Position numbers and translations under genes: made by a program
The notes under the pieces: model-generated
Seen by the model: only the letters and a program-made list of their open reading frames with translations
Told to the model about the DNA's origin: nothing
The model's database searches: none
Shown here: positions 2,865-55,975 of the stretch, in pieces
Numbering within the stretch: position 1 is the first letter of the stretch
How the letters are laid out: the number at the start of each line of letters is the position of its first letter
From: a virus
Reading direction: 5' to 3' (one strand)
Length of the DNA stretch: 64,000 nucleotides
Virus record (IMG/VR): IMGVR_UViG_3300009314_000007
Location: 32,001 to 96,000 of that record

Positions 2865-3351
2865 CGAAAAAGCAATAACGTTAGTGGAAGATCTGCTCAA
2901 ACAGGTCTTTTCTCGGATTCCGGAGTTGCGGAGCGCCATTGTCATCTTCGATTGGCAGGGATCGCTCAACGAAGTGGCCAAACCAATGGTTTGGGTCAAA
3001 GAGAGCGGCAAGTCCGTTCAATCTGCGGACCTGGCGGAACTGAGTGGTGGCACCAAGCACACCCTCGCACTGCTTGATAGGCAGTTCCACGCCCTGGACC
3101 AAAACGCCAAAGCAGCTTGGGTCATTGCGGAAAGGAAACATCGTGAAGCGTCCGAAGCTAGTGCCCAGGCCTCGCCGCCCAGTACCGGCGAGCGAGGATC
3201 AGTGTTCCCAGGAGGACAGCGAGAGGGAAGCGGAAGCGATGCAGCTTCAGACCCTCAAGCAGCGGAAGAGTGCGAAGAACAAGCGACTCAAGGAGGCGCT
3301 GGAAGGAGTTCGGACGATTCCGGATCTGCTTCGACTGTTCAGGATTCGTGA
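2812..3351 (+). CDS. Hypothetical protein
   Basis: 179-aa ORF in operon order. Confidence 0.65.
   Translation: MTETPTNPTNPARALQFDEKAITLVEDLLKQVFSRIPELRSAIVIFDWQGSLNEVAKPMVWVKESGKSVQSADLAELSGGTKHTLALLDRQFHALDQNAKAAWVIAERKHREASEASAQASPPSTGERGSVFPGGQREGSGSDAASDPQAAEECEEQATQGGAGRSSDDSGSASTVQDS
2872..2887. repeat. Dispersed 16-bp palindrome copy 1 (GCAATAACGTTAGTGG)
   Basis: Read directly; matches five other copies. Confidence 0.9.
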
Positions 3352-3856
3352 GTGCGACTACGTGCTCATTGGAGACGGTTCTTGCACGGGCAACTGGAAT
3401 TACCAGGCAGGCTGGGCCTGCGTGGCAATCAACGTGCAGAACAATGAGCGACAGGAGGTCTATGGGGGTGCTAACATGGGCACCAACATCCTGTCGGAGA
3501 TGATGGCCTACATCTACGCATTTCACTGGCTGTCCCGCAAGAAGGAAAGCTCGACGATGTACGTAGACGTGTTCACAGATTGTGAATACGTAGTGCAGGC
3601 GGCGGAAAACTCGCATCGGCGAAAAGCCTACCGCGAAGTCTGGCACATGGTTGATGCCTACAAGCGAAGTGGCATGATCATTCGGTGGCACTGGATTCCA
3701 CGAGACACGCTCGATCTGAATCAGCTCTCGCACAACCTGGCCAATCTCGCCCGGGTGGCGATGAAGGAGCTGGGGGCGCAAGCAATATCGAGCATGGACG
3801 TGGAGTCGATCAACGATCTTACACCCAACCGTAACGAGGAGGTCGAAACACAATGA
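3143..3856 (+). CDS. rnhA: Ribonuclease HI-like protein
   Basis: IGDGSC..GWA, GTNILSEMMA, FTDCEYV, WHWIP, NQLSHNLA (last Asp replaced by His); start uncertain (GTG 3143 with AAGGA, or ATG 3239). Confidence 0.85.
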   Translation: MKRPKLVPRPRRPVPASEDQCSQEDSEREAEAMQLQTLKQRKSAKNKRLKEALEGVRTIPDLLRLFRIRECDYVLIGDGSCTGNWNYQAGWACVAINVQNNERQEVYGGANMGTNILSEMMAYIYAFHWLSRKKESSTMYVDVFTDCEYVVQAAENSHRRKAYREVWHMVDAYKRSGMIIRWHWIPRDTLDLNQLSHNLANLARVAMKELGAQAISSMDVESINDLTPNRNEEVETQ

Positions 3857-4056
3857 GCGCGCAGCCCCCGCAAGTCATGCGGCCGTTGACCGCCGAGGAG
3901 ATCCAGCGGCTACAGCAAGACCCGTGCCTATTGGCAAAGCGATCGCGCCCGGTCAACCCGAAGTACCCGGAACTGTGGAGAGGGTTGGTGGACTTCCGAG
4001 CCGGGGGTCAAGCTCCCGAACGCGATAACCCAGATCCAGATCCAGAGCAGGAGTGA
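3853..4056 (+). CDS. Hypothetical protein
   Basis: GGAGG SD, ATGA overlap. Confidence 0.6.
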   Translation: MSAQPPQVMRPLTAEEIQRLQQDPCLLAKRSRPVNPKYPELWRGLVDFRAGGQAPERDNPDPDPEQE

Positions 4057-4059
4057 TCA

Positions 4060-4317
4060 ATGCCACGCGCCCTATGTAAAGTTGACGGATGTTTGGTCAT
4101 CGCAGAGTTCACTCGCTGCGAGCCAGGAACAACGGGCAAGTGTCCGCAGTGCCACCCGCCGCACAGGATGCCGCGACGTGGTGACCACGGTAAGTCACTC
4201 GTCGAGCGAGATGGCTGGCTCGAATGCACGACTGACGAGTGCGATTTTGCAATTCTCGCCTCGGACTACGAGCGGGTGATGATCGAACCGCTGCCATTTA
4301 TCGGCATGGGAATCTAG
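4060..4317 (+). CDS. Small Cys-rich (putative Zn-binding) protein
   Basis: CxxxxC, CPQC, CxxxxC; AGGAG SD. Confidence 0.6.
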   Translation: MPRALCKVDGCLVIAEFTRCEPGTTGKCPQCHPPHRMPRRGDHGKSLVERDGWLECTTDECDFAILASDYERVMIEPLPFIGMGI

Positions 4318-4343
4318 TGGATAACTCGAACCAGGAATGAAGT

Positions 4344-4910
4344 ATGAGCGACCTAACCCGCTGGACGCAGCGCAAACACGAGAAGACCGGCGACTCGTAC
4401 ATGACGCCGGAAGAGCATGGTTGCTGGACGAATTACAGCGAGGCCGACGAAAAGATCGAGCGGCTCAAAGAAGCCCTACGAGTACGTGGTGGCTGCCGAA
4501 TGCTCAGCGAGGGCGACAAGTGCGATTGCGGTCTCTGCAAGCGAGACAACGAGATTGCTCGGCTTCAGGAGATCGAGCGGTTCGCCAGTCACGCGGGCAT
4601 TCTCAAGGCCCAGGAAGACCATAATCGGATGATGAGCGAGATGGCAGCCAAGATTGAGCGTCTGGAGGCCGATATTGCCAAGCATCACGAAGACTACCAG
4701 ACACAGAACGATGAGATAGTCCGGTGTCACGCTAAGATCAAGCTGCTCACTCTTGCCGAGGCCTGTGCGAAGGCAGCTATCGAGTGCGTTCAAGTCACTG
4801 GCGTGCCGTACGCCATCCTGAGACCGGCACTTCGCTGGGAAGAAGTCGCAGAGAAAACCGATGAGGAGATCGCGCAAGGGCTGAACGAGCGTAGCCAAAG
4901 CGACACTTAA
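4344..4910 (+). CDS. Hypothetical coiled-coil protein
   Basis: Heptad-like KIERLKE/EIARLQE/KIERLEA, CDCGLC. Confidence 0.65.
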   Translation: MSDLTRWTQRKHEKTGDSYMTPEEHGCWTNYSEADEKIERLKEALRVRGGCRMLSEGDKCDCGLCKRDNEIARLQEIERFASHAGILKAQEDHNRMMSEMAAKIERLEADIAKHHEDYQTQNDEIVRCHAKIKLLTLAEACAKAAIECVQVTGVPYAILRPALRWEEVAEKTDEEIAQGLNERSQSDT

Positions 4911-54092: not shown

Positions 54093-54132
54093 GAGTGTGG
54101 GGCGGGAGACCGCCCCACACTCGGTCTTTTTC
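54093..54132 (+). terminator. Rho-independent terminator
   Basis: 13-bp perfect stem GAGTGTGGGGCGG/CCGCCCCACACTC with GAGA tetraloop, then T-rich tract. Confidence 0.85.
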
Positions 54133-54181
54133 TTATCCATCAGATGGTGTAAGCTATTTCGGACCCGACAAGGACAATCTT

Positions 54182-55798
54182 ATGACCCAGGTGATTACAC
54201 TTCAGGCCGGTGGCAGCGGTTCCGATGTTCGCCGAGACTGGTCCCCGATTGCGCAGCCCCCCGACCGCAATGGCATTATCGCCCATACGCCTAATCCGGG
54301 GGGCTATCACGATATGGGTGGCCGTACGATGCTGCCGAGACACACGCAGTTCGGGGGCTCCAAAGGCTTCGATACTCGCCCGGGGATTGTAAATGTTGAC
54401 CCGGCGGACCCTGTTCGAGGAGAGGGCGGCGTTACCGTGGACCTGGAGTTAGTATCCAAGGAGGCGTTTATTCGAGCCGCCGAGTTTAGTGGCGGCGACC
54501 CGATTGCGGCGTGGGACTTGGCGGCACAGGCTCAGATAGGCGGCCCGGGCGTGGTACAATTGGCGCCGGGGCAGCCGCAAGCGGCGGCGCCGATCAGCCC
54601 CGCCCCCTTGCAGCAACCTACGATAGGCGCGGCCGCAGTTCCCGTTACGAACATGTACGAGGCACTGCAACAGCCCACACAGTCGGACGCTGGCGGTACC
54701 TACGTGCAGATGGCGCCGGGAGCTGCGGCTCCGGGTTACGTTGTTCCTCACACCAATCCAAGTGGCGGAGTGATTCCGCGGGAGAATGCGAACATGTCAA
54801 ATCCGATAGGGCCCGGGGGCGGCCTGATGCCCGCGGCCGGAATGGCCACACTTACCAACCCGAACGTTAAGCAGAAGGAGGCCGGTGTGAACACGCATGC
54901 TGAACAATCTCCTTGGGAAGGCGCCGCAGCAAGCCCGCCCGCGGGGGCACCGGTTCTGCAACCACCCGGGCAGCCCGGAGCGCAGATGCCGGTGGCGACA
55001 CCACCCGGGCATCCCGTAGTGCCGGGTCCAGTGCAGTACGCCGCTCCGCCCGGCTGGACGCCGCCCGCGCAACACGCTCCCATGCCGACGCAAGTGCCAG
55101 CGCCAGCCCCGGCGCCGGTAACGATGGTGCCCGTGCCGATGGCGGTGGGACCTCCGACTCCTCTCGCGACGGGCGAGCCCGCTCCGCAGGTGGGCGTTGA
55201 CGCCGTGCAGCACGCGATGCTGGAGGCGCTCAAGGAGCTTGGGGACCAGGTGAAGAGCCTGCAAAATGGTCGCGGTGCCGCTCCGAGCGACTGGGAGTTG
55301 ACCAAGCAAGGTGCGCCTGGGCAGGCCGAGAGTCAGGAAGAGACACTGCCTGAGGGCGTCGAGTACGCCGACACTCATTCCTGCGGATTAGGCTTTCTTA
55401 CCAACCCACCGTCTCGACCCAGAATTGAAGTCATCTTCGATCTGGGAGTCGGTGGTCTGCACACCAAACGATTCCACTGGGCGGCGTTCCGCAATGGCTG
55501 CCTGTCGCTGTTCTTCGATACTCGTAGCGATTACGATCAGTTTGTGCCGCCCGAGACGCTTGAGGATTCTCACACCATTGGCGTGCGTATCCCGTCGCGA
55601 CAGCTTGACGTACGGGTGAAGTGTTTCCACAATAACCACCAGAGGTTTGGTTGCGTGGATCAGTTGAATTTCACGGTCTGGACCACTCCCGTCGAAGTGG
55701 ACCATGGGCCGCCAATCGCCACACACGATACTCTCCAGGAGCTGCATACTCTCGGCGGAATGGCTGAGGAGCTTAGCGAAGGGGGAGGTTGGGGCTGA
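54182..55798 (+). CDS. Pro/Ala/Gln-rich protein with globular C-terminus
   Basis: AAGGA SD, 538 aa. Confidence 0.7.
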   Translation: MTQVITLQAGGSGSDVRRDWSPIAQPPDRNGIIAHTPNPGGYHDMGGRTMLPRHTQFGGSKGFDTRPGIVNVDPADPVRGEGGVTVDLELVSKEAFIRAAEFSGGDPIAAWDLAAQAQIGGPGVVQLAPGQPQAAAPISPAPLQQPTIGAAAVPVTNMYEALQQPTQSDAGGTYVQMAPGAAAPGYVVPHTNPSGGVIPRENANMSNPIGPGGGLMPAAGMATLTNPNVKQKEAGVNTHAEQSPWEGAAASPPAGAPVLQPPGQPGAQMPVATPPGHPVVPGPVQYAAPPGWTPPAQHAPMPTQVPAPAPAPVTMVPVPMAVGPPTPLATGEPAPQVGVDAVQHAMLEALKELGDQVKSLQNGRGAAPSDWELTKQGAPGQAESQEETLPEGVEYADTHSCGLGFLTNPPSRPRIEVIFDLGVGGLHTKRFHWAAFRNGCLSLFFDTRSDYDQFVPPETLEDSHTIGVRIPSRQLDVRVKCFHNNHQRFGCVDQLNFTVWTTPVEVDHGPPIATHDTLQELHTLGGMAEELSEGGGWG

Positions 55799-55801
55799 CA
55801 A

Positions 55802-55966
55802 ATGCACGAGAAAAGAGGTATCATCGAAGCTGGTAGGACAAACCCGGAACGCGCGAGTGATCCGAAGAACGAGGAAAAGCAGGCATCCGTCGAGCAGCTT
55901 GACGACGACGTGACCAAGCGCGCGGCGGACGCAGTGGCCAGCGAGTTCCAAGAGGAAGTCCAATAA
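55802..55966 (+). CDS. Small hypothetical protein
   Basis: Manual translation MHEKRGIIEAGRT...EEVQ (54 aa, below track cutoff), GGAGG upstream, fills the gap. Confidence 0.55.
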   Translation: MHEKRGIIEAGRTNPERASDPKNEEKQASVEQLDDDVTKRAADAVASEFQEEVQ

Positions 55967-55975
55967 CGTTAATGG
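55960..55975. repeat. Dispersed 16-bp palindrome copy 6 (CCAATAACGTTAATGG)
   Basis: Overlaps stop codon of the 55802 gene. Confidence 0.88.

Follow-up and report, generated by a model that had tools for sequence, protein, structure and literature searches.

The window analysed here spans 64,000 nucleotides (positions 32001-96000) of a virus record of 107,336 bp (G000). The source is a large uncultured marine phage, in which a palindrome of 14 letters occurs about once per 10 kb. The record probably represents about half of a genome, because comparable contigs of 107-119 kb were scored as 48-55% complete. The features of the window referred to below are the following, with record numbering in brackets.

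2872..2887, no strand assigned (34873): GCAATAACGTTAGTGG, intergenic, between the g44 stop codon and g46
14726..14741, no strand assigned (46727): ACAATAACGTTATTGC, in a 38-nt gap directly 5' of an sbcD/Mre11-like gene (14762-15934)
25538..25553, no strand assigned (57539): CCACTAACGTTATTGG, 74 nt into an annotated UDG-PolA ORF
38089..38104, no strand assigned (70090): CCAATAACGTTATTGC, at the extreme 5' end of ORF 38079-38639
48845..48860, no strand assigned (80846): CCACTAACGTTAGTGG, a perfect 16-bp dyad within ORF 48338-49645
55960..55975, no strand assigned (87961): CCAATAACGTTAATGG, intergenic, 11 nt 5' of the ATG at 55986
33583..34773, + strand: DUF932-like gene, conserved upstream neighbour of g84
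34790..35764, + strand: g84, candidate reader of the sites, 324 aa, with a ParB/Noc-type DNA-binding domain (approximately residues 37-160), a coiled-coil dimer region (174-250) and a Lys-rich tail of about 70 residues; CTPase domain absent

All six copies of CAnTAACGTTAnTG given in the preliminary description were recovered at these coordinates, with the same gaps between them and 0 expected; VCAMTAACGTTADTGS matched exactly at 2872, 14726, 25538, 38089, 48845 and 55960, against 0.00 expected in 100 dinucleotide shuffles. Allowing two mismatches added just one further weak match in the window. The whole record contained ten perfect copies (16411, 27473, 34873, 46727, 57539, 70090, 80846, 87961, 98249 and 106306), at least six of them intergenic, together with two copies with one mismatch (1924 and 6173) and one copy with two mismatches at 6884, in which one half-site is perfect. 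All ten TAACGTTA octamers of the record were found within the full CA.TAACGTTA.TG context and none outside the motif. The recurrence about every 11 kb, first noted in the window, extended beyond it. For the perfect copies the coefficient of variation (CV) of the spacing was 0.19 (P<1e-4) and the smallest gap 7115 bp; among 20,000 random placements this CV was reached by none, and the minimum gap by a fraction of 0.0001.

Independence of reading frame, also claimed earlier, held for part of the sites. Those at 2872, 14726 and 55960 are intergenic, and the one at 48845 is truly intragenic, in a conserved 435-aa ORF whose homologues in the related genomes G005, G020, G010 and G006 align across the site. 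The sites at 25538 and 38089 lie within the first 80 nt of their ORFs in stretches unconserved in relatives: at 25538 this is a Lys-rich N-terminus, and 38089 is situated 8 nt past the stop of the preceding gene.

L305 is a close relative, with a terminase 91% identical, of which 22 kb was fetched. This stretch has two sites, among them the one at 2872; both were identical and syntenic, and their flanks were 84-91% identical. We counted this as selection on the sites. Distant relatives, from a family of jumbo phages of about 200 kb, carried evenly spaced lattices of other palindromes, TTTTCCGGAAAA, CTCAAAAsCGsTTTTGAG and GTGGAGACGTCTCCAC. In G001, TTTTCCGGAAAA was present in 13 copies (0.002 expected; spacing CV 0.37, P 7e-4), and G006 contained CTCAAAAsCGsTTTTGAG in 8 copies (CV 0.43, P 0.025). 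A related imperfect dyad in G010 gave 12 exact cores and 22 matches at no more than three mismatches (CV 0.51, P 5e-4), and [G/T]TGGAGACGTCTCCA[A/C] occurred 23 times in G018. Regular spacing is thus significant in four genomes with different motifs (G000, G001, G006 and G010). The AT-rich character ascribed to the palindrome applies to the source phage only; in a relative whose GC content is 43% the palindrome is GC-rich. The k-mer screens detected no lattice in G002-type, G007, G013 and G014 genomes.

Several positions recurred with different spellings. The sbcD homologues of G006, G010 and G016 each have the motif of their own genome directly upstream, as in G000; the g44/g46 boundary holds a separate palindrome in G006 and in G010; and in G018 a palindrome particular to that genome lies 22 nt from the 5' end of the polymerase homologue. 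One G010 copy lies 97 nt after the same methylase gene that is found upstream of ORF 48338-49645. The preliminary description had named a lack of conservation in relatives as a refutation, and on this the outcome is two-sided: the close relative keeps the spelling and distant ones have exchanged it, but the lattice persists. Judged from these sequences, the best explanation would be that the lattice is an inherited trait of the jumbo-phage family, with a concerted turnover of spelling in distant relatives.

The gene at 34790 had been described as encoding a ParB-type DNA-binding protein, and profile, Foldseek and VIA-align comparisons all agreed with a ParB/Noc-type domain. The match of g84 to Pfam HTH_ParB was weak and below cutoff (E 1.4e-3), and the family profile matched ParB/Noc among PDB sequences at E ~2e-3. 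The AlphaFold2 model (pLDDT 86.5) gave only ParB/Spo0J/Noc as top Foldseek matches. In VIA-align, 12 ParB/Noc chains scored Z 8.5-11.1 and unrelated chains at most 6.1; the values were 11.1 for Noc 7nfu_B (rmsd 3.0 over 102 residues), 10.3 for Spo0J-parS 4umk_B and 10.1 for the Noc-NBS complex 6y93_A. The predicted homodimer scored 0.82 versus 0.06 for the best of three controls, with contact agreement between runs of at least 91% and partner pLDDT of at least 83. Among proteins of solved structure, this mark was attained by 20 of the 30 that are one-chain pairs and by 1 of the 23 that are single chains.

The g84 family comprises 575 cluster representatives, and a homologue was found in all 15 fetched genomes that were profile-searched and in 22 of 30 further records; by these searches g84 is a core gene. 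Homologues are present also in the G002-type, G007, G013 and G014 genomes, so that either the lattices there are too degenerate to be picked up by k-mer screens or the reader is something other than g84. The recognition helix varies within the family, and G006, G010 and G012 share a similar TLYxLRN-type helix and similar AAAAnCC half-sites. The correspondence of helix to motif covers about five lineages and is confounded by phylogeny. The g84 homologues of G006 and G010 are immediately preceded by a lattice site, at 43 nt and 18 nt respectively, and in G001 a site heads the two-gene block of the homologue; such a site was absent in G000, G007, G009, G013, G014, G016 and G018. The preceding gene at 33583-34773 had an ESM Atlas feature score of 0.97 to DUF932 clusters, and a DUF932-like gene adjoins the g84 homologue in G007, G013 and G014.

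Both parS and NBS are contiguous dyads with a central CG and half-sites of 7-8 bp. The lattice sites share this format, as dyads of 14-16 bp with no spacer, in line with the parS-like character proposed earlier. A segregation system of canonical parABS form is not indicated, because g84 lacks the ParB CTPase domain and the neighbouring genes scanned contained no ParA-type partner; nor do the sites cluster in the manner of a centromere, since their even distribution takes in the whole record. The ORF at 62784 is of the tubulin/FtsZ family, as described. Its suggested link to the palindromes was not supported, because tubulin is confined to the G000/G006/G010 clade and the lattice-bearing G001 has no homologue at E<=1e-4.

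From sequence comparison and modelling we propose, with roughly even confidence, that the palindromes are docking sites on duplex DNA that form an even, genome-wide lattice, and that their likeliest reader is g84, the phage's own ParB/Noc-fold protein. The protein g84 is the best candidate, and its link to the sites is circumstantial. The reach of 10 kb is unexplained, because g84 is without the CTPase domain by which ParB, Noc and KorB spread.

The sites could instead be conventional operators or promoter-associated elements of another phage regulator, heading transcription units of about 10 kb so that the spacing mirrors operon size. We regard this as unlikely but as a serious contender. The preliminary description had named operators as its alternative, and the placement of the sites keeps it alive: most lie in short gaps 10-60 nt upstream of start codons, the same genes (sbcD, polymerase and g111) are preceded by sites in distant relatives, and an intergenic, start-proximal placement (12 of 12 copies intergenic in G010, 10 of 13 in G001) fits a conventional operator or other reader equally well. 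Moreover, a promoter-like TAGCTATCA unit precedes three G018 copies by 3-4 nt, and a sigma-70 region-4 protein is encoded in the window at 45951-46706, although none of the eight relatives compared had a homologue of this gene at E<=1e-4. Against operators, G000 has truly intragenic copies and 17 of the 23 G018 copies lie within called ORFs. Some intergenic gaps are little more than the palindrome itself (stop-CC-site-GAT-ATG in G006), leaving no room for a promoter, and an intrinsic terminator separates site 16411 from the next gene. Structural and replication modules are covered alike, and the regular spacing in four genomes also speaks against this explanation.

Physical or replicative marks, such as site-specific nicks of the T5 type, initiation sites of replication or recombination, topoisomerase/gyrase sites or packaging pauses, appear improbable to us. 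A regularity of about 10 kb is the expected design for origins, topological domains or sets of nicks, two G001 copies are central in much longer inverted repeats, and SbcCD, RecA-like, helicase and polymerase functions are encoded beside several sites. However, the known nick sites of T5 and tf phages are asymmetric and cut on one strand, no nickase, topoisomerase or initiator was recognised among the proteins scanned, and the sequence data show no breaks. Since the dyad is perfect and its half-sites vary independently, a symmetric dimeric binder is indicated.

RNA hairpins in polycistronic transcripts, acting as processing sites, stabilisers or translational operators beside the ribosome-binding site, we consider very improbable. 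In many cases the Shine-Dalgarno sequence of the following gene directly adjoins a copy, 11 of 12 G010 copies have one motif orientation, and the GC-rich G018 palindrome is predicted to be stable (-8 kcal/mol). In G000, however, the predicted hairpin is negligible, at 0 to -1.4 kcal/mol. Of its 10 sites only 4 have complementary bases at the variable arm positions, and about 3.2 would be expected under independent variation of the arms. The outer pair of G018 likewise assorts independently, and no compensatory variation between arms was seen. In G006 the central tetranucleotide is found either way round with respect to its flanks, coding regions hold copies, and an association with terminators was looked for and not found. 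Because the arms do not covary and the predicted hairpin is negligible, we concluded that the signal resides on duplex DNA and is read by a co-evolving protein; that it is a signal on DNA and not on protein had been proposed before.

That the copies are small repeats of a mobile or selfish kind (REP/MITE-like), or by-products of restriction-modification or methylation, is hardly credible. In its favour, REP elements are typically dispersed palindromes, the palindrome centre is CG, and positions 47473-48336 encode a DNA methylase (PF01555, E 1e-48). Against it, the copies are just 14-16 bp without conserved flanks or target duplications, are evenly spaced instead of clustered and keep their positions across relatives while their sequence changes in concert. 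In addition, G001 lacks the methylase at E<=1e-4, and a restriction target should be depleted, not enriched.

We found no published description of such a lattice. The best structural match of g84 is to Noc/NBS and ParB/parS of Bacillus, whose sites are likewise contiguous dyads of 14-16 bp with a central CG; NBS is ATTTCCCGGGAAAT, which the G001 motif resembles. Noc also has many sites across the chromosome, marking it for spatial organisation. In contrast to g84, Noc and ParB have an N-terminal CTPase domain that is needed for spreading, and in Noc also for membrane binding; NBS are aperiodic and avoid the terminus and parS cluster near the origin, whereas the phage lattice tiles the genome evenly. 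In N15 (SopB/sopC) and in phages with L5-type stoperators, many binding sites of one protein run through gene blocks and influence expression genome-wide. N15 is a linear plasmid-prophage with only four dispersed centromere sites and a full SopAB partition system, and the stoperators of L5-type mycobacteriophages are asymmetric sites that follow the direction of transcription and to which the lysogeny repressor binds. The lattice differs from these in its dyads, in having more sites than N15 and in its even spacing, and neither a partition ATPase nor lysogeny was indicated in the phage.

The IncP plasmid RK2 carries 12 OB sites. Like the lattice, KorB/OB combines a ParB-fold reader with short palindromes that have AT-rich arms and a GC centre, the OB core being TTTAGCGGCTAAA in the oligonucleotide used (PMC11790492). 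OB sites are distributed over the whole replicon, some beside promoters and some far from them, and exert global control. The KorB DNA-binding domain scored Z 6.9 against the g84 model in VIA-align. KorB differs from g84 in being a CTP-dependent sliding clamp that acts together with KorA and is at the same time the partition protein; no KorA-like or ParA-like partner was found for g84. RK2 is moreover a plasmid with OB sites that are not evenly spaced, whereas the lattice belongs to a phage genome of about 100-200 kb. According to the available text of PMC4351075, Cluster O mycobacteriophages (Corndog) carry more than 30 copies of an invariant 17-bp inverted repeat (TGTTCGG-NNN-CCGAACA) genome-wide, between ORFs, near their 5' ends or within them, with no meaningful orientation relative to transcription and with neither function nor reader established. 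These copies are about five times denser (34 in about 70 kb), have a 3-bp spacer and were reported from a single tight cluster whose genomes are nearly identical, in an account whose available text contains no analysis of regular spacing, motif turnover between lineages or a candidate reader (PMC4351075).

On the docking-site reading, a sequence-specific dimeric protein encoded by the phage would read the sites, here about one per 10 kb. If this protein is g84, each subunit would sit on one half-site (CAmTAAC) while the coiled coil keeps the dimer together, and the Lys-rich tail may contact neighbouring DNA without sequence preference. Sites would go to the least costly positions, the very short intervals that separate a stop codon from the ribosome-binding site after it, and be written into a gene where no such interval exists at the needed distance. 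A drift in the specificity of the reader would shift all sites together, giving each lineage its own spelling. One protein would thus mark the whole replicon, as KorB does at OB on plasmid RK2 or Noc at NBS on the Bacillus chromosome, and this marking may serve global transcriptional control, compaction and positioning of the genome, or both.

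The six palindromes of the preliminary description were all recovered. VCAMTAACGTTADTGS matched the window at 2872, 14726, 25538, 38089, 48845 and 55960 and nowhere else, and it did not occur in 100 dinucleotide-preserving shuffles. When 2 mismatches were tolerated in the 14-bp core, just one further, weak match was found in the window. The record G000, from which the window is taken, is a single virus record of 107,336 bp with 58.9% GC, and further copies were found along it. All TAACGTTA octamers of the record were located inside the full motif. We use the term lattice for a set of evenly spaced copies of one short palindrome in a phage genome.

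Copies of the palindrome in the G000 record (genome positions)
16411, 27473, 34873, 46727, 57539, 70090, 80846, 87961, 98249 and 106306: perfect copies of CAnTAACGTTAnTG (n = 10)
1924 and 6173: copies with one mismatch, in the first 7 kb of the record
6884: copy with two mismatches and one perfect half-site, in the first 7 kb of the record

The gaps separating the perfect copies were 7.1-12.6 kb, with a coefficient of variation of 0.19. None of 20,000 random placements reached this coefficient, and so large a minimum gap was reached in a fraction of 0.0001. Conserved sequence around the sites extended over ~14-16 bp only and the flanks were unrelated. The palindrome pattern is genuine, lies well outside chance expectation and extends past what the window alone reveals. 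An exact 15-mer scan of IMG/VR returned 67 contigs; almost all had just one copy, and they were set aside as chance background. Among sequencing runs, one marine DNA run contained 0.40 of the words of this sequence, and no RNA run turned up. Additionally, GAGATCTC was over-represented in G000 (8 copies, 1.4 expected) and in the related phage genome G006 (7 copies, 1.3 expected), and GAGAT(C) came after several lattice copies.

The terminase large subunit of G000 matched phrog_675 (E 1e-43), and an alignment of this terminase with one distant homologue was used to collect 80 related IMG/VR contigs. The complete genomes among them were 195-235 kb long, three with terminal repeats, and contigs of 107-119 kb were ~50% complete by score; on this basis G000 probably covers around half the genome of a jumbo phage. 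In L305, a metagenome contig with a terminase 91% identical to that of G000, two perfect copies were present in the 22 kb examined. They occupied the same terminase-relative positions as the genome sites 34873 and 27473 and had identical variable letters. The site flanks were 84% and 91% identical to G000, and the probability that both 14-mers stay unchanged by chance at those rates is ~0.02. In distant relatives TAACGTTA was not enriched; they carried lattices of their own instead.

Palindrome sets in distant relatives of G000
G001 (193 kb, polymerase 37% identical): 13 copies of TTTTCCGGAAAA against 0.002 expected, often extended to ATTCTTTTCCGGAAAAGAAT
G006: 8 copies of CTCAAAAsCGsTTTTGAG, set precisely between a stop codon and a start codon
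G010: imperfect dyad CTAAAAGCCnnTTTTGAG, related to that of G006; 12 cores are exact, and there are 22 matches when up to 3 mismatches are allowed
G018 (43% GC): 23 copies of [G/T]TGGAGACGTCTCCA[A/C], mostly inside called ORFs
G009: a sparse set of AAAAsCGsTTTT

Ten of the 13 copies in G001 were intergenic. Besides G000, the spacing was significantly regular in G001, G006 and G010. Site positions recurred as well: a site was found directly ahead of sbcD in G000, G006, G010 and G016, at the boundary of genes g44 and g46 in G000, G006 and G010, and at the 5' end of the polymerase gene in G000 and G018, and other recurring positions were near the genes g5, g111 and g120. The palindrome is conserved nearby and jointly replaced far off, with positions partly kept, as would be expected of a cis-element with a co-evolving reader encoded by the phage.

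Exact-palindrome and k-mer screens, which degenerate lattices could escape, detected no lattice in G002, G003, G005, G007, G011, G013, G014, G020 and G021. Several k-mer matches were rejected. The G020 match AGCACCCAT was a coding Met-Gly-Ala start, and the matches in G012 (TAAAATCCGGAATTAA) and G016 (GGTAAATArGAACC) were oriented motifs of the stop/SD junction type without a dyad and were not counted as lattices. The G016 loci (L255-L264) contained 15 copies of the oriented GGTAAATA(A/G)GAACC, usually with an ATG 3-10 nt later; the motif includes a TAA stop and a ribosome site of the AGGA type, and so appears to be an element of intercistronic junctions and not a dyad. Matches in G007, G013, G014 and G018 were TTTAG(C/A)TATCA promoter-like units beside terminators. 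In these lower-GC relatives (G013, L182-L191; G014, L192-L201; G007, L214-L220; G018, L265-L274) an intrinsic terminator was followed by TTTAGCTATCA, or by TTTAGATATCA in G013; the units clustered in an apparent early region and are probably family-specific promoters. In G001, bases 27,000-29,000 (L073:7000-9000) held ~27 tandem copies of a ~74-bp unit containing AGCCCGCTGCACAGGGCTTTGTCA, with a period like that of a CRISPR array, and isolated copies of this repeat adjoined two lattice sites.

Almost all genes of G000 are on the + strand. Genes were called with a crude in-house caller, whose calls are the least dependable in the AT-rich G018. Of the ten perfect G000 copies, six were placed in short intergenic gaps and two fell within 80 nt of the 5' end of annotated ORFs, namely at the polymerase N-terminus and in ORF 38079-38639, in stretches that are unconserved in homologues. 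The remaining two were truly intragenic.

Examples of site placement in G000
38-nt gap ahead of the sbcD-like gene (window 14762-15934): intergenic site
11 nt ahead of the ATG at window 55986: intergenic site
Window 48845: intragenic site in a 435-aa ORF; homologues in 4 relatives align across the site
Genome 106306: intragenic site within a long open frame
Genome 6173 and 6884: degenerate copies within a conserved structural gene

At site 16411 an intrinsic terminator separated the palindrome from the next gene; the sites showed no general association with intrinsic terminators. By placement statistics the dispersed palindromes, some of them distal or intragenic, are arranged like a global operator set of the KorB/OB type. 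A regulatory role of this kind fits the start-proximal placement of the sites, positions that recur in front of genes for replication and recombination, and three G018 copies that lie immediately downstream of a promoter-like unit. However, with only 7-14% of the genome non-coding any intergenic site is near a start, so that start-codon proximity is partly forced, and a promoter-proximal arrangement, judged from promoter-like sequence, was seen only in G018. An organisational role, Noc-like or as a chromatin-like coat, fits alongside the regulatory one and is not separable from it. It is in line with the even spacing in four genomes, with sites that cover structural and replication modules alike, with gaps too small for a promoter, as in G006, and with copies written into genes where a gap is absent. 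The Lys-rich tail of g84, the candidate reader of the sites and a 324-aa ParB/Noc-fold protein encoded at window 34790-35764 (+), likewise favours it.

Clustering at a par operon or origin, as in a parABS centromere, was not observed: the sites tile the whole record in 7-12.5 kb steps; no ParA-like protein was found among the g84 neighbours and other scanned proteins (~40 of ~130 genes). REP/MITE-like elements are 20-40 bp or more in length, have conserved ends, are clustered or mobile and vary in presence between close relatives. Such repeats were rejected because only 14-16 bp are conserved here and both copies are present and syntenic in the 22 kb of L305.

An RNA hairpin would require pairing between the arms. 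In each arm a single base varies, at position 3 on the left and position 12 on the right, and these two were complementary in 4 of 10 G000 sites against ~3.2 expected with independent arms. Compensatory pairing was thus at chance level, the predicted hairpin energy of the G000 sites was 0 to -1.4 kcal/mol, and the RNA element was rejected. With no arm covariation and a negligible hairpin, base pairing is not what keeps the dyad in place. In G018 the outer pair of the palindrome assorted independently, and the central tetranucleotide of the G006 palindrome occurred in both orientations relative to its flanks. The two half-sites of the dyad seem to be read independently, which is characteristic of a symmetric protein dimer that binds duplex DNA.

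The preliminary description had named a ParB-type DNA-binding protein at 34790, and for the central helix-turn-helix domain this assignment held. At the sequence level the similarity was weak (E ~1e-3): g84 matched Pfam HTH_ParB at E 1.4e-3, under the curated cutoff, and a profile of 60 g84 family sequences found ParB and Noc among PDB sequences at E ~2e-3 over residues 107-165. PHROGs gave no match for g84 or most of its neighbours. The AlphaFold2 model of g84 had a mean pLDDT of 86.5, and its best ten Foldseek matches in the PDB were all ParB, Spo0J or Noc (probability 0.96-1.0). VIA-align against 12 ParB/Noc chains, which include complexes with parS and NBS DNA, gave Z 8.5-11.1 and an rmsd of 2.5-3.6 over 97-103 aligned residues; KorB reached Z 6.9, SopB 6.4 and unrelated chains at most 6.1.

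The match is to the DNA-binding domain only. The CTPase domain defines ParB clamps and closes the clamp. In g84 the N-terminal ParB/Srx-like CTPase domain with its GxxRxxA box is absent, there was no ParBc-type Pfam match, and the structural alignments begin at g84 residue ~37-44 and ParB/Noc residue 116-141, past the CTPase domain. The predicted layout of g84 consists of two N-terminal helices (within residues 1-57), the DNA-binding domain, a coiled coil (174-250) and a ~70-residue Lys-rich tail. A homodimer was predicted with a score of 0.82 against 0.06 for the best control, with at least 91% of contacts common to runs and a pLDDT of at least 83; of proteins solved as one-chain pairs 20 of 30 attained this mark, and of those solved as single chains 1 of 23 did. 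The predicted interface is formed by the coiled coil and the N-terminal helices and not by a ParB-type C-terminal domain. The model supports a g84 that pairs as a homodimer, as needed to read a dyad. Lys-rich tails of the KKKVVKK type were found on unrelated proteins, at the C-terminus of g84 (window 35540-35764) and the N-terminus of the polymerase (25570-25640), and could be a DNA-affinity or targeting tag.

The g84 family comprises 575 cluster representatives at E<=1e-3. By single-sequence phmmer, g84, the methylase and the tubulin had seemed to be restricted to genomes with a lattice. For g84 this phyletic profile was overturned by profile searches, which matched it in all 15 genomes searched with the profile and in 22 of 30 further related records, and the family is present also in genomes without a detected lattice. 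The link between g84 and the lattice sites is circumstantial and comes from gene context and sequence comparison. A lattice copy was found 43 nt ahead of the g84 homologue in G006 and 18 nt ahead in G010, and in G001 a copy heads a two-gene block containing the homologue. Variation was seen in the predicted recognition helix, with similar forms in G006, G010 and G012; the half-sites of these three have AAAAnCC in common. No lattice copy was found ahead of the g84 gene in G000 or six other genomes, and no G000 site is within 3 kb of it.

Other genes in the window
25465-28914: one ORF fusing a uracil-DNA-glycosylase-superfamily domain, a 3'-5' exonuclease and a family A DNA polymerase
29016-31004: 662-aa protein with a very strong coding signal
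33583-34773: DUF932-like protein, ESM Atlas score 0.97
45951-46706: protein with a sigma-70 region-4 domain (E 3e-11)
47473-48336: N6/N4 DNA methyltransferase (PF01555, E 1e-48)
62784-63998, running beyond the window end: tubulin/FtsZ-family GTPase (PF00091, E 6.8e-10)

The DUF932-like gene is also directly upstream of the g84 homologue in G007, G013 and G014, and this kept position suggests a two-gene module. The Lys-rich N-terminal stretch of the glycosylase-exonuclease-polymerase ORF was not common to relatives. For the 662-aa protein there was no Pfam or PHROG family and, in a search of 5.8 billion proteins that returned the query alone, no homologue outside the phage family. Among eight relatives compared, the sigma-70 region-4 protein had no homologue at E<=1e-4, and homologues of the methyltransferase were found only in G006 and G010; a lattice copy comes after the methyltransferase gene in both G000 and G010. 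The tubulin named in the preliminary description is indeed a tubulin-family protein, but nothing ties it to the lattice. It is 27 kb from g84, it had strong homologues only in G006 and G010 (E 1e-94 to 1e-100) among the eight relatives, and it was absent from the lattice-bearing G001 at E<=1e-4. The tubulin gene of G010 is preceded by a lattice copy at a distance of 89 nt.

As a more specific form of the organisational role, which we consider rather unlikely, the lattice may be a nucleation grid for a chromatin-like coat of the phage DNA. A ParB-fold dimer without CTPase and with a histone-H1-like Lys-rich tail would dock every 7-15 kb and would then compact, shield or tether the chromosome; the spacing would be selected, spelling and specificity would co-evolve by lineage, and in the tubulin clade a coupling to cytoskeletal positioning of the phage DNA would be possible.

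KorB with its OB operators on RK2 is among the nearest described systems (PMC11790492). The lattice and its candidate reader have the site format and the reader fold in common with KorB/OB, Noc/NBS and chromosomal ParB/parS. These systems need a CTPase clamp, whereas g84 is without the CTPase domain, and unlike the lattice they have partners and no periodic placement. The closest phage precedent is the 17-bp palindrome of Cluster O mycobacteriophages, of which >30 copies are found without orientation between ORFs, near 5' ends or inside ORFs, and which has no known function or reader (PMC4351075). Our literature search turned up no account of jumbo phages in which a lineage-specific palindrome lattice with even spacing is tied to a ParB-fold protein.

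To our knowledge, ParB-fold proteins are common in phage genomes and their role there is largely unknown. The candidate pairing joins one small protein family (575 sequence clusters) to one short palindrome per phage, evenly spaced genome-wide, and the natural 'specificity swaps' between lineages act as built-in controls. For annotators the lattice is a simple signature of members and sub-lineages of an uncultured marine jumbo-phage family. If the pairing is true, it would provide a rich natural data set on the change of DNA specificity in ParB-type domains. Large lytic phages would then carry a private address code along the entire chromosome, and this would open a way to global gene control, compaction or self/non-self discrimination without a CTP clamp mechanism.
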